Of a stretch of DNA of 64,000 nucleotides, positions 45,543 to 49,549 are shown in pieces. A model generated the notes under the pieces. That model made no database searches. It was not told the DNA's origin and saw only the letters and a list, made by a program, of their open reading frames with translations. Source of the DNA: Planctomycetaceae bacterium (lineage in GTDB: Bacteria; Planctomycetota; Planctomycetia; Planctomycetales; Planctomycetaceae); assembly GCA_044235005.1 (NCBI GenBank), contig JBIIIF010000003.1, positions 5,792 through 69,791 of the forward strand, read 5' to 3'. Position numbers and translations under genes: made by a program. Numbering within the stretch: the stretch's first letter is position 1; the number at the start of each line of letters is the position of its first letter.

Positions 45543-47489
45543 TCAACGGCTGTTTCCCGATGTACCAAGTGCGACCGATGTCGTTGCCGTTGAGTAGACG
45601 ATCTGCAGGAGGTTTTGAACTGGATCAATCGATAATCCGGCAAGGAAAGCAGTCCATTCGACCTGCAGTTTCTGCCCCAGAGAGTGATTGGAAGGGTCGA
45701 AGGTTGCATCGTGCTGAACATAATAGTCGCTCATAGGCCAGATCCCGACTCGATCCGGAATCATCCACTGAGCCCCGGAGCCGGTACCAGCGCCAGGCCA
45801 TTCGGGTGAGCCAAGGTCGAGCAATCCCCCGAGTGCATAATAGTTTCCCTTTTTCATCGGAAACCCGAGTGTTGAAATTCCATCTTCGCCAGCCTTCATG
45901 AATCCCGGAAGTTCACTGATCGTTGCTCGCTCGAACGGAGATGAGGAGTATCCATCATCAAAGCTCCATTCCCGTCGAAACGCTGCTTCGCCGGAGGCCT
46001 TCAGTTCTTCGATTTCCAGAGGCGAGACACCCTCATTCAGCAGCGCAGCCTCCTGCTCAGGAGTCATTGGTGTTGTTTGACTTAATTGAAAGAAGCTGTT
46101 TGTCTGCGGATCAAAACGTGCATTTTCGGGCAAATTCTGAATCTCGCCTGTCACTGGATTTGTGACGGTATTGTTCACGCCATCGAGAATTCTTCCATCC
46201 GAAAGCGTGTGTTTGGAAGAGGTCTGCAGGCCTCGAGGCCCTCCATCGCTCGATGGCGGATTCGACGACATGTTGCCGGTACTGCTGATATCCGGGGCCT
46301 TACAGATCAGTGCTCCGTCCGGAAGCAGCATTCCGGATGAAATCCCTTCGACAAGCACCGTCGACTGGCTGGTGACGATTGTTGAAGGCACCGCTGTTAA
46401 GCTGGTGAACCGAGCGACTGGTAATGATCCTGCAGAGACCTGAGCACTTCCCTGCACGATTGTTTTTCCTGACGGGCACAGGATATCGGAGGCTCTTGCA
46501 ATTGGCTTTCCACAGACCAGCACGGTCGGCAGACCTGTTATGACGAAGTCTGCCATGTTGTCCTTGTTGCCCAGATGAGCAACGGGGAGTGTCGCTTTGC
46601 CGGACTCCAGTGGAGCACCATTGAAGAAGTCATGAATCTTTTTTGTCAGACGACTCTGCAAAGTGCCGAAACTATCCCGAAGTTGTTCAATGCTCCCGAC
46701 GCCTTTCATGAGTTCATCGACCATCTCCTTTGCCAGGTATTTCGAGAACTCCATCGCCACCATCGCACCGGGAGAATCTTTGTAGTCCAATCCCAGGCTG
46801 CTAAAGAGAGCCTCCAGTCCGGCTTCCACACCTTTTTCCAGTCCTTTGCCGATGCTTTTCCAGATGACGCCATTCACCTTATCGACGATCCAGTCGACCG
46901 TTTTGCTGTCCAGGAGTTCGTTCACCGCGTCTCGTGTTGCGTCATCCAGAATGTCATCCGAGGTTGTCTTCAGCAGATCTTCAAGTAGGTCGGTTGACTG
47001 TTCCGTCAACCATTTCTGAATCTCTTTGATCCCCTGTTGAATCAGTAGATTTCGAGCTTGTTCGCGAACCGTTGACCAGTCGAGTTTGTCGGGAAATTTT
47101 GCCTTAACCTTTGACCAGAACGTCAGCCAAACAACATAGTCACCGGCGTCGCCGCTGGATCCCGGAAATTTTGGTTCTTTGCGGTTGTCCTTTTCATCGT
47201 TGTCCTCACATTCACCATTCCGGACACTCGACAGGTGGCTGGACGCATTACTTGTCTGCCACTTTGTTTCCATCGGCAAAGGATCGCTTCCCGCGGCTTC
47301 CCTGAGTCTCTGCGGGATACGAAGAGACTTAATGAGACTGGGCAATCGCTTTGCATGGCTCTCCATTTCGGATCCGTACTGATCGACGGACCTGACCACG
47401 CTTTCGATGGCTTCTGGATTGAACGACTGACGATACATCAACGGTACTCCAGCAGAAAAAGGAGGCCATTCAATACAGACCGCGATCAA
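45543..47489 (-). CDS. PAAR-like domain protein with helical N-terminal region and uncharacterised C-terminal domain (candidate T6SS cargo effector)
   Basis: 648-aa ORF. TTG 47489 overlaps the vgrG stop (TTGA). ATG 47438 with GGAG is the more likely start. There are two P-x-A-R motifs (CGKPIARASD, GSLPVARFTS) in a beta-rich segment at residues ~300-382. Confidence 0.8.
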   Translation of the reverse strand: MIAVCIEWPPFSAGVPLMYRQSFNPEAIESVVRSVDQYGSEMESHAKRLPSLIKSLRIPQRLREAAGSDPLPMETKWQTSNASSHLSSVRNGECEDNDEKDNRKEPKFPGSSGDAGDYVVWLTFWSKVKAKFPDKLDWSTVREQARNLLIQQGIKEIQKWLTEQSTDLLEDLLKTTSDDILDDATRDAVNELLDSKTVDWIVDKVNGVIWKSIGKGLEKGVEAGLEALFSSLGLDYKDSPGAMVAMEFSKYLAKEMVDELMKGVGSIEQLRDSFGTLQSRLTKKIHDFFNGAPLESGKATLPVAHLGNKDNMADFVITGLPTVLVCGKPIARASDILCPSGKTIVQGSAQVSAGSLPVARFTSLTAVPSTIVTSQSTVLVEGISSGMLLPDGALICKAPDISSTGNMSSNPPSSDGGPRGLQTSSKHTLSDGRILDGVNNTVTNPVTGEIQNLPENARFDPQTNSFFQLSQTTPMTPEQEAALLNEGVSPLEIEELKASGEAAFRREWSFDDGYSSSPFERATISELPGFMKAGEDGISTLGFPMKKGNYYALGGLLDLGSPEWPGAGTGSGAQWMIPDRVGIWPMSDYYVQHDATFDPSNHSLGQKLQVEWTAFLAGLSIDPVQNLLQIVYSTATTSVALGTSGNSR

Positions 47490-49549
47490 TTCAGCTTAAT
47501 TGGACTTCCCAACAAGCTAAGAGTCGCGTTCGATTTCACGGTGACGTTGCCACCTTTAACCGACGTCGCTGTGGACCCTTCGACTTCCGTGGTCTTACCT
47601 TTGAGTTGCAGCAGCGAAGCGCCCTGGACACGAGTGATCGCGCCCATTGCCGTGAGAAGTATCCCGCCTGTGACATTGGTGACCGGGGCAGACAGACTGG
47701 CCTGTGCAGCTCCAGCGACGGTCACGATTGTGCCCGTGATCGTAATGAGACCGGCTTTGTTCATGGAGATTGTCGAAGCGCCGCACTTGAGAGTGATCGA
47801 GTCGCCTGCAGAGATTGTAATGGTCTTGCCAACGGTCACGGTCTGGCTGCAGTCGACATTTACCGACTGTTCACCGGTTACGTGGATCGACTGATTCCCT
47901 CCGATTTCTACTTTCTCGTTGCTCCCTACACTGCGAGTTCGATTCACACCAACTTTCTCGGTCTGGTTGTTGCCGACGTTCAGGGTCTGGTCATGATTGA
48001 CATTGCTGTTCATGTCGTACTGAGCATTCATCCGGAGCTGTTCTTTGCCAGGACTGTCGTCCATGGACATTTCGTTGTGGCCGGCACCTTTGTACGTTTT
48101 TGTCGTGTTGCCTCGGCGTGTTTTACCGGCTGGCAATGAGAACGGAGGCATGTTCTCACCGTTATAGACACGCCCTGTGATGATCGGCCGGTCCGGATCA
48201 CCTTCGAGGAAACTGACGATGACTTCTTCATTAACCCGAGGCAGATCCATCATGCCCCAGCCCTGTCCCGCGTGAACTTGAGATACGCGAAGCCAGCACG
48301 AGCTTTTCTCATCAAATCTGCCTTCGCGGTCCCAGTGAAACTGTGCCTTCACGCGACCGAATTCATCCGGATAGATTTCCTCCCCGGGAGGTCCGGTAAT
48401 GATCGCTGTCTGGGGCCCTTCCACGACCGGTCGGCGAGTTTGTCGGGCCGGGCGAAACACGGCCTTTGATGGAAGACACTCAAATCGGCAATGAAAATTG
48501 ATCTCTCCGGGGGCCGACAAATGGACGTCATAACTGCCTCCCACCGATGCTTCCACAACAGACTTTCGCACGACATATTCACGGCCCACTTCGGCGGAGT
48601 TGACATGGTTCCGAATTCTGAATCGCCCACCGGGAGCAAATGAGCGATAAAGACATTCTCCAAAAACCACATCATGATCGGCTTCACTCTCCTGCATTCG
48701 AATTCGAGTGAGATGATGTCCCGGTTTTCGCTCCGTAAAACATCCCGGGTATTCGTAGATTTCGAACTTCTTTGTGAGTGGAACCGGCATGACTGTTTCG
48801 GTCGTGGTCAACAGGCGAGTGCGTGGCTTCTTAAAGTTGAAGTCTGTCTGTGTCCATCGCCCTGAACGAAAGCGAGTCTCATGTTCCCATGAAGTGATCT
48901 GGTCCGAAAGATCGCCGCTGTGGTCGGGATCAGCCATCTCGACATCGTAGTCCGGCAGTCTGAAATAAGAACTGATGTCATCGGCAATGATGAGTGTGTG
49001 GATGCCGTTCTGATGTTCAAAGTAGTAGAAGATTCCCTCCTCTTCCATCAGGCGAGAGACGAAGTTGAAGTCGGATTCACGATACTGAACACAGTATTCC
49101 CGCTTTTCGTAGTTACCATGCAGATGAAATTCGAAATCTCGAAACCCAAGGTCTGTAAAAACGGTCTCGATGATTTCGGCCGTCGTCTTGTGCTGGAAGA
49201 TTCTGCAGTCTGTGGTTTGTGTGAAAAACCAGAGCCAGGGAACCACGGTTGCACGATAGATTGTTCCCGCATCATTCTGGCCGGCGTATCGAAAGCTGCT
49301 CACATGGGCATTCCAGTATCGTGGAGCGTCGCCAGACTGATTCAACATCCACGAAATGTTCTCACCGACGATTCTCGTGGGGTCGAGTGAATCGTTCTCC
49401 GATACCATCTCAATTTCATATTCAAACAGGCGCGACAGTTCTTCCGACCCGGAAAACCTGCGAAGCAGGAGAGCATCGTCAGAGAGTGGAGTTGTGACGG
49501 CCATCTGTCGTGTTGATTGAGTCGCATTTTTGAGCATCGCTGAACCCAT
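47486..49549 (-). CDS. vgrG: type VI secretion system spike protein VgrG
   Basis: 687 aa. Canonical N-terminus [59 protein letters not shown], a gp5-like OB region ([15 protein letters not shown]), and a C-terminal beta-helix of V/T/G-rich repeats. Alternative starts at 49537 and 49504. Confidence 0.93.
   Translation of the reverse strand: [687 protein letters not shown]

Follow-up and report, generated by a model that had tools for sequence, protein, structure and literature searches.

Orphan vgrG-PAAR effector islands and extended PAAR proteins are well known from work on type VI secretion systems (T6SS). The closest described examples are the auxiliary islands of Proteobacteria, including the Vibrio cholerae Aux clusters, the Pseudomonas aeruginosa vgrG islands and Tse6. 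In these islands, the gene that follows vgrG on the same strand encodes a PAAR protein whose C-terminal payload is polymorphic among relatives, and the island is positioned away from the core cluster; such distance from the core is the norm for satellite vgrG islands. All of these features are shared by two genes in a 64-kb stretch of a Planctomycetota chromosome (the window, by which we mean the whole stretch analysed): a vgrG gene and, co-directional with it on the minus strand, a gene for a 631-amino-acid (aa) PAAR protein. In this respect the module is a routine satellite T6SS island. A sequence-only reading of the window had described a VgrG spike with a PAAR cargo, orphan within the 64 kb and possibly an undescribed effector module, and the core of that reading is supported here. 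We consider it likely that the pair is a satellite island whose specialised PAAR effector carries an undescribed, enzyme-like toxin domain at its C-terminus, and that this island has lost a second effector, Tae3.

The vgrG gene, its PAAR partner and their surroundings

Both open reading frames (ORFs) are present on the minus strand where they had been placed. The vgrG (tssI) gene (47486..49549) encodes 687 aa with a gp27-like hub, a gp5 OB-fold and a C-terminal beta-helix, and no extension domain. The protein scores 598.7 bits against TIGR03361, above the curated family cut-off of 186, and 432.8 bits against TIGR01646; its Pfam matches are Phage_GPD (1e-89), Phage_base_V (1.3e-15) and Gp5_trimer_C (3e-22). 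TIGR03361 and the Pfam profiles thus bear out the identity of this ORF as VgrG. Relatives of this VgrG number in the thousands, the closest named ones being from metagenome-assembled genomes of Planctomycetota, Pirellulaceae and Planctomycetaceae, and many close relatives bear fused toxin domains.

The junction between the two genes reads AAT-TGA-TCG, such that the vgrG stop codon TGA (47486-47488) overlaps a TTG (47487-47489) that begins a longer partner ORF (45543-47489). From this overlap the genes had been described as tightly coupled and the partner as a 648-aa protein, with an ATG preceded by GGAG at 47438 noted as a better start. The two codons do overlap; the genes themselves do not. 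The ATG at 47438, which stands 8 nt after the GGAG (47447-47450), is used by gene callers and by all full-length homologues of the PAAR protein. What separates the genes is therefore a spacer of 47 nt (47439..47485, minus strand) that holds a ribosome-binding site. The protein is accordingly 631 aa long rather than 648. A scan found no terminator-like site on the minus strand of this spacer; the promoter and terminator scan was otherwise uninformative.

Pfam and homologues support the reading of the downstream gene (45543..47438, minus strand; 631 codons and a stop) as one for a specialised PAAR effector, and its product already carries the JGI label T6SS Zn-binding (PAAR) protein. Four parts can be distinguished in this protein, all on the minus strand: an N-terminal module (N-module; residues 1-282, 46593..47438), the PAAR cone (residues 283-365, 46344..46592), a linker rich in Ser, Thr, Pro and Asn (residues 366-485, 45984..46343), and a C-terminal domain (C-domain; residues 486-631, 45546..45983), a candidate toxin of an unannotated family. 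The cone matches PAAR_motif (PF05488) with 32.6 bits (cut-off 27) at nt 46344-46592. A PAAR-like cone had been placed at this position on the basis of two P-x-A-R motifs; the cone and its position stand, and the number of PAAR-type motifs is three (PVAH285, PIAR312 and PVAR340). Judging from the sequence, H288, C309 and C321 are candidate metal ligands.

Structural comparison agrees with this assignment. When an AlphaFold2 model of residues 1-400 was compared with known structures by Foldseek, the first six matches were all solved PAAR cones on VgrG/gp5 tips (4JIW, 4JIV, 6P1Z, 9F4B, 9VYI and 4KU0), with probabilities of 0.94-1.0 and target-normalised template modelling (TM) scores of 0.60-0.71. 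Among them are the stand-alone cones VCA0105 (4JIV) and c1882 (4JIW) (Shneider et al. 2013), which have three repeats and vgrG adjacency in common with the window cone and match it with a probability of 1.0 and TM scores of 0.63-0.64 (again target-normalised). However, these are stand-alone cones of ~95 aa, whereas the cone in the window is an internal segment of a 631-aa protein, and its sequence similarity to them is low: NCBIfam T6SS_PAAR_dom gives 18.9 bits against a cut-off of 124. The predicted local distance difference test score (pLDDT) of the model is 51 overall and 56-72 within the cone; the cone alone is therefore usable, and the model does not resolve the fold of the N-module.

The lengths and character of the sequences on either side of the cone are close to those first described (about 300 aa of acidic, helical sequence before it and about 265 aa after it). 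Specifically, the 282 aa before the cone are mildly acidic (pI 5.1) and predicted to be helical, at low model confidence, and 266 aa follow. The mid-protein position of the cone had been called unusual, but extended PAAR proteins are a recognised class, and the same layout of N-module and PAAR occurs in ~40 protein clusters. The N-module contains neither the prePAAR motif AARxxDxxxH nor a transmembrane segment (the best 19-residue hydropathy window in the protein, 1.44, lies within the cone), and DUF1795 is not listed in the precomputed Pfam gene tables of the neighbourhood in relatives. Pfam, NCBIfam and PDB sequence searches of the N-module and C-domain returned nothing besides PAAR.

Pfam searches of all window ORFs of at least 180 aa found no Hcp, TssA-M, ClpV or baseplate gene, as had been reported; ORFs of 70-180 aa were read by eye and covered by one NCBIfam scan. 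With Hcp1 and the TssC, TagJ, TssE, TssF, TssG and ClpV proteins of a related cluster as tblastn queries, the window gave no match with an E value below 0.06. The Pfam matches are to housekeeping and typical planctomycete genes, such as those for Val-tRNA synthetase, histidine biosynthesis, an AcrB-type pump and RNase E/G; further genes encode phosphotransferase system (PTS) proteins, a DUF1559 protein with an N-methyl motif, Tad-pilus-like proteins and pyrroloquinoline quinone (PQQ) beta-propellers. The neighbours of the pair are thus unrelated housekeeping genes, as first described, and the possibility raised at that time of a surrounding prophage tail module found no phage gene in the window to support it. 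GC content is flat over the 64 kb. Taken together, the gene content, the tblastn result and the flat GC content indicate that the pair stands alone in these 64 kb and that no prophage contains it. The lack of other T6SS genes, combined with the housekeeping neighbours, marks it as an auxiliary vgrG island, and for such islands the orphan state is normal.

A connection to the T6SS is provided by relatives of the spike. A VgrG that is 57% identical lies directly downstream of genes for TssC, TssC, TagJ, TssE, TssF, TssG and ClpV (locus L012), which ties this VgrG clade to a canonical T6SS. The core segment of L012 (1-9850) contains two consecutive TssC (VipB) genes, TagJ, TssE, TssF, TssG and ClpV, and then a pair of vgrG genes, of which the latter includes a fused PT-HINT domain. 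In another locus (L011, 12110-18451), an orphan vgrG with 63% identity is followed by genes for a 758-aa protein that has no Pfam match and an FHA-domain protein, with IS66 transposase genes adjoining.

Selection, payload exchange and a tae3 remnant

A scan of a genome collection found a single relative, 'Planctomycetota bacterium MAG_1020' (GCA_052034165.1, JBPOIW010000019), which has the same synteny as the window, with RNase E/G 99% and VgrG 87% identical. Ratios of nonsynonymous to synonymous substitution rates (dN/dS) calculated against the MAG_1020 orthologues (dS > 1) are 0.047 for VgrG and 0.09 for the whole PAAR protein. By region, the values are 0.07-0.11 for the N-module, 0.035 for the PAAR cone, 0.13 for the linker, which is the least constrained part, and 0.04 for the C-domain. 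All domains of the PAAR protein, and VgrG, are under strong purifying selection. Public metagenomes contain 13 variants of the PAAR protein with at least 90% identity, of which 12 are 631 aa long and one is a 262-aa fragment. Low dN/dS throughout (0.04-0.13) and full-length variants together show that these genes are maintained and are not decaying.

More distant relatives reveal that the protein is modular. A word-indexed search with the PAAR protein returned only four close relatives, and an exhaustive profile search of 1.84 billion representatives gave 127 matches; mapping the domains of these 127 resolved two independent modules. Module A covers profile positions ~72-400, comprising the helical N-region and PAAR, with conservation of the N-module alongside PAAR beginning at about residue 72. 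It is found in ~40 clusters with differing C-termini, which according to Pfam include Lipase_3, a thioesterase-like alpha/beta-hydrolase, Mbeg1-like, DUF4329 and DUF6973 domains, and PF05488 is matched in 30 of 37 members of the family. From these alignments, the N-module and PAAR appear to form a recurrent payload-swapping carrier. Module B covers profile positions ~490-628, the C-domain, and is found in 58 clusters (defined at 50% identity). In 43 of these the C-domain is the extreme C-terminus, mostly in an N-module-PAAR-C-domain layout of 550-650 aa in total; in the other 15 it is followed by 240-600 further residues. Some members begin with a DUF4150 Tox-PAAR-like domain, or also bear Gln_amidase, Mbeg1/Lipase_3 or DUF6973.

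Directly downstream of the PAAR gene, comparison with MAG_1020 reveals the remnant of a second effector gene that the sequence-only reading had overlooked, along with the tae3 and tae2 genes that relatives carry at this place. The remnant (45428..45531, minus strand) consists of the last 32 codons and the stop codon of tae3 (residues 104-135). In MAG_1020, an intact 135-aa tae3 gene starts 84 nt after the orthologous PAAR gene, and its product matches PDB 4HZ9 chain A with E = 1.7e-21; this entry is Tae3, a T6SS amidase effector from Ralstonia pickettii. Its catalytic Cys23 and His81 (PMC11796386) are conserved in MAG_1020. Relative to MAG_1020, ~390 nt have been deleted from the window, removing the intergenic spacer and tae3 codons 1 to about 101. 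Because only residues 104-135 are retained, catalytic Cys23 and His81 are both gone. The same stump is found in three further independent assemblies (L001, L002 and L004). Locus L019 retains tae3 codons 1-94, up to the end of the contig, and in L020 the PAAR-C-domain gene is followed by the first 17 codons of a Tae2 homologue instead of tae3. No Tai3- or Tai2-like gene was recognised beside the tae3 remnant in the window.

A third arrangement occupies the same chromosomal site in locus L009, which contains a VgrG with 76% identity, an unrelated 663-aa PAAR-like protein, a Tae2 homologue (PDB 6WIN, E = 6e-40; NCBIfam BPSL0067, 5e-48) and a 153-aa ORF. Different cargo at one site, together with tae3 that is intact or a stump, or tae2, in relatives, makes the island a cargo-swapping site. 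The site is bounded upstream by the gene for a DUF7133/HEAT, cytochrome-c-type protein (49704..53327, minus strand), which lies outside the island and is syntenic in relatives, and downstream by the gene for a lipoprotein alpha/beta-hydrolase with a GHSMGG motif (44101..45150, minus strand), which is probably outside the island and is syntenic in relatives with different cargo. We also observed Tae2 (BPSL0067-family) homologues in planctomycete-type vgrG islands of L009 (12175-15500) and L014 (747-1136). The 153-aa ORF that follows Tae2 in L009 has no signal peptide and no family match; it could encode a Tai2-like partner.

The C-terminal domain

The sequence past the cone had been called unassignable, and this held for the C-domain, which matches no PDB sequence and nothing in Pfam or NCBIfam (with 33 members searched in Pfam to E = 10). 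In an alignment of 33 members, nine residues are invariant: G543, P548, A550, G551, W558, P561, H576, D577 and E594, with H576-D577 encoded at nt 45708-45713 and E594 at nt 45657-45659. The consensus reads LGSPxxPGAG ... WxxPD ... HDxx[F/Y] ... ExxAF ... LQxxYSxATT. Using this alignment, AlphaFold2 produced a model of the C-domain with a pLDDT of 84.7 and a predicted TM score (pTM) of 0.75. In the model, a small beta region and a Gly-rich loop precede three helices; H576 and D577 are on the first helix and E594 is on the second. A Foldseek search of the PDB with this model returned nothing significant, the top match being phospholipase A2 (PLA2) of Tuber borchii (4AUP; E = 2.7, TM 0.38). In the viral structure library BFVD, eight of the top 50 matches (E 1.1-9.4) are either a phage 'phospholipase A2 domain protein' or densovirus capsid proteins, the latter entered under the names VP1, VP, structural protein and ORF1; densovirus VP1 carries a PLA2 domain. 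Given a confident model, nine invariant residues and a PLA2-like top fold match, the C-domain looks like a folded enzyme.

Several features of the C-domain are shared with secreted PLA2s of groups XIII/XIV (Streptomyces 1KP4/1FAZ and Tuber borchii 4AUP), Tox-PLA2 and parvoviral VP1u. Specifically, the C-domain has a catalytic-looking H-D-x-x-[F/Y] on a helix and an acidic residue on the next, as well as an upstream D-L-G-S and a Gly-rich x-P-G-A-G loop. Its D-L-G-S ... H-D-x-x-[F/Y] pattern resembles the Tox-PLA2 signature DxC[ST] ... HxxxY (Zhang et al. 2012), and PLA2s head the fold matches from both structure libraries, without reaching significance. Despite these similarities, the C-domain differs from the PLA2s in the spacing between D-L and H-D, which is 35 aa rather than 21, and in its lack of conserved cysteines; with the longer spacing and no conserved cysteines, the full signature DxC[ST] ... 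CxxHxxxYxN is absent. No PLA2 family was found in Pfam to E = 10 over the 33 members, and a search of PDB sequences with the C-domain profile returned nothing. Membership in the PLA2s was likewise not supported by direct profile comparison with hhalign: AAV2 VP1u gave a probability of 0.13% with the HD motif alone aligned, bee-venom PLA2 gave no match, and a Streptomyces PLA2 profile (121 sequences of low diversity, Neff 1.6, with the reference sequence verified against 1FAZ) gave 0.14%. With cysteines absent, spacing longer and a profile probability of 0.1%, our first guess for the chemistry of the C-domain is still that of a PLA2-like lipid hydrolase, with a little less than an even chance of being right, and we do not regard membership as established.

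Wherever genomic context could be seen, the C-domain family is strictly linked to vgrG. A scan of metagenomes with a narrower alignment of the C-domain returned five loci, and in all five the C-domain protein is encoded 1-3 kb downstream of vgrG on the same strand. Three of the five contain a gene for a DUF2169 adaptor, confirmed by Pfam in L014 and read from the sequence in L015 and L017. A DUF4150 tip domain is present in four, fused to the C-domain protein in L014, L015 and L018 and on a separate protein encoded before it in L017; the domain is confirmed by Pfam in L014, L017 and L018, and the assignments in L015 rest on N-terminal sequence similarity. The proteins P0178 and P0181 also have a DUF4150 and C-domain layout. 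In the L014 effector, the order is DUF4150, C-domain and then a CHAP-like amidase region, the latter a weak Pfam match below the curated cut-off.

Function, rival explanations and described systems

These results suggest how the island, which sits between housekeeping genes of a Planctomycetota chromosome, might work. The vgrG product would form a trimeric spike, and the central cone of the PAAR effector would cap the blunt end of the VgrG beta-helix, such that the whole 631-aa protein would ride on the spike tip. Contraction of a T6SS sheath encoded elsewhere in the genome would then fire the effector into a neighbouring cell. The helical N-module of ~280 aa would be a lineage-specific carrier part that travels with PAAR, and the C-domain of ~140 aa an exchangeable payload, presumably an enzyme-like toxin in which one helix bears an invariant His-Asp and the following helix an invariant Glu. 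Its activity would most likely be that of an envelope or lipid hydrolase with a PLA2-like design. The island once also carried a small peptidoglycan amidase effector gene, tae3, which has been deleted in this lineage with a 32-codon stump left behind.

Several observations weigh against this interpretation. Pfam found no other T6SS gene among the window ORFs of at least 180 aa, and no immunity-like gene lies beside the PAAR gene or tae3 in the window or in MAG_1020, which is atypical for an antibacterial toxin. The model of the N-module is of low confidence (pLDDT 51). The resemblance of the C-domain to PLA2s is statistically insignificant in every test. Finally, the tails of at least 240 aa that extend past the C-domain in 15 clusters contain a recognisable toxin domain in a few cases and mostly have no Pfam match; the C-domain need not be the sole payload, or a payload at all.

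If the C-domain were not a toxin, it might be a docking or accessory module that mounts Tae3 or Tae2 on the spike tip or readies the envelope, with the cargo gene lost here. We regard this as unlikely, though it is the most substantial of the rival explanations. Of four lineages, three have a small papain-fold amidase gene directly behind the PAAR-C-domain gene (tae3 for MAG_1020 and L019, tae2 for L020), and the fourth has the stump; moreover, the C-domain and the CHAP-like region, itself a weak match below cut-off, are in one polypeptide in L014, the stretch from the PAAR gene to tae3 contains no immunity gene, and further sequence follows the C-domain in 15 of 58 clusters. These tails show no similarity to Tae3 or Tae2. 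However, the C-domain is terminal in the other 43 clusters, the polar residues that never vary in it (H, D, E and D) are enzyme-like, and tae2 is also found after a PAAR protein with an unrelated C-terminus in L009 and before vgrG in L014, which indicates that amidase genes track the island and not the C-domain. The strong constraint on the C-domain (dN/dS of 0.04, a figure that reflects the whole divergence and not just the time since tae3 was lost) also counts against this explanation, as does the fact that small Tae effectors are Hcp-loaded in Proteobacteria.

The two remaining explanations question the tie to a working T6SS. The pair could be a decaying relic whose T6SS core was lost or never present and whose genes are turning into pseudogenes; the lack of core genes in 64 kb fits this, as does the destruction of the adjacent tae3 by the ~390-nt deletion, which is fixed in four assemblies. 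Yet neither ORF is interrupted in its 687 or 631 codons, dN/dS is 0.05 for VgrG and 0.09 for the PAAR protein against an orthologue with dS > 1, 12 of 13 metagenomic variants of the PAAR protein are full length, and distance from the core is what satellite islands generally display, which makes a relic quite improbable. Less probable still, in our view, is an origin of the two genes in an extracellular contractile injection system (eCIS) or the tail of a prophage. VgrG and PAAR folds are common to phage baseplates, and the cone has a weak sequence match to the eCIS tip protein of SalCis10 (9rce, E = 0.057), but the T6SS-specific VgrG models score far above their cut-offs, the close VgrG relatives adjoin TssC, TssE, TssF, TssG and ClpV, and the window has no phage, sheath, tube or baseplate genes, with flanks that are syntenic in three lineages. 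On this gene content we reject the prophage or eCIS reading.

A satellite T6SS island with a toxic payload thus remains our preferred explanation, and it can be extended in a bolder form that we hold as doubtful. The C-domain might found a new T6SS effector family, whether as a PLA2-like lipid hydrolase that lacks cysteines or as some other new enzyme of the envelope. It is also possible, on balance improbable, that Planctomycetota and other bacteria deliver this family on PAAR/DUF4150 tips with no linked immunity gene; if this were true, it would point either to a target that the producer does not possess, such as eukaryotic or foreign membranes, or to an unconventional form of self-protection. 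In the same tentative scheme, the helical module of ~280 aa before PAAR could be a new built-in loading device that replaces adaptor or chaperone genes.

Synteny in three lineages extends to the genes that flank the island, such as those for RNase E/G, PTS proteins and an amidohydrolase. The lipoprotein alpha/beta-hydrolase at its downstream edge was evaluated in two roles, those of immunity protein and Tle-type effector, and we reject both because it is a conserved flank that stands beside different cargo in L009, has a lipoprotein signal and retains an intact GHSMGG motif. Its coding region (window 44101-45175, minus strand) includes the signal ...LLLAIFLLIGVSGC and the nucleophile motif GHSMGG, with homologues at about 11150-12262 in L006 and about 15900-16946 in L009. 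In all three lineages, no ATG, GTG or TTG occurs between the upstream in-frame stop and the lipobox, and a conserved A_AAA_AAG tract is located there; an ORF from a TTG (or ATT) start would join the hydrolase frame by a +1 shift at this tract. The pattern favours a non-canonical start or programmed frameshifting over an error in the sequence. Elsewhere in the window (26270-28143, plus strand), the ORF of a Ser/Thr protein kinase (26270-27145) shares its end with a 383-aa ORF that is read in a different frame and has no Pfam match (26992-28143), and the two may be a frameshifted or two-part kinase gene. Three PQQ/BamB-like beta-propeller proteins are encoded on the minus strand at 28428-32498 and 41452-42948, a leucine-rich repeat protein at 6562-7848, and Tad-pilus-like genes lie at 22940-24598.

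A literature search of incomplete coverage found no experimental work on the T6SS in Planctomycetota, in keeping with the earlier impression that contractile-injection cargo has not been characterised there; the T6SS of this phylum appears experimentally unexplored. Three things are new at this locus: a C-domain family without annotation, an N-module carrier that recurs, and Tae genes in Planctomycetota that lack immunity genes. These leads give the island its value. With 58 clusters, the C-domain family has a list of invariant residues short enough for direct mutation, and the N-module and PAAR carrier is useful for effector mining in Planctomycetota. Tae2 and Tae3 genes occur in this phylum with no recognisable neighbouring immunity gene, and one of them has been caught as a deletion remnant.

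Among the individual described systems, the amidase effector Tae3 (4HZ9) is matched by the MAG_1020 gene, and Tae2 (6WIN, BPSL0067 family) by the homologues in L009, L014 and L020. The C-domain is also borne by DUF4150 (Tox-PAAR-like) effectors loaded via DUF2169, as in L014, L015 and L018; in contrast to these, the protein in the window has a classical PAAR cone and its own N-module, with no DUF2169 gene. Compared with the auxiliary islands of Proteobacteria, the window lacks an Rhs cage, a prePAAR motif, a transmembrane segment, an Eag/DUF1795 or DUF4123 chaperone gene and an adjacent immunity gene, and has instead a soluble helical module of ~280 aa before the cone, an unannotated payload and a host in the Planctomycetota.

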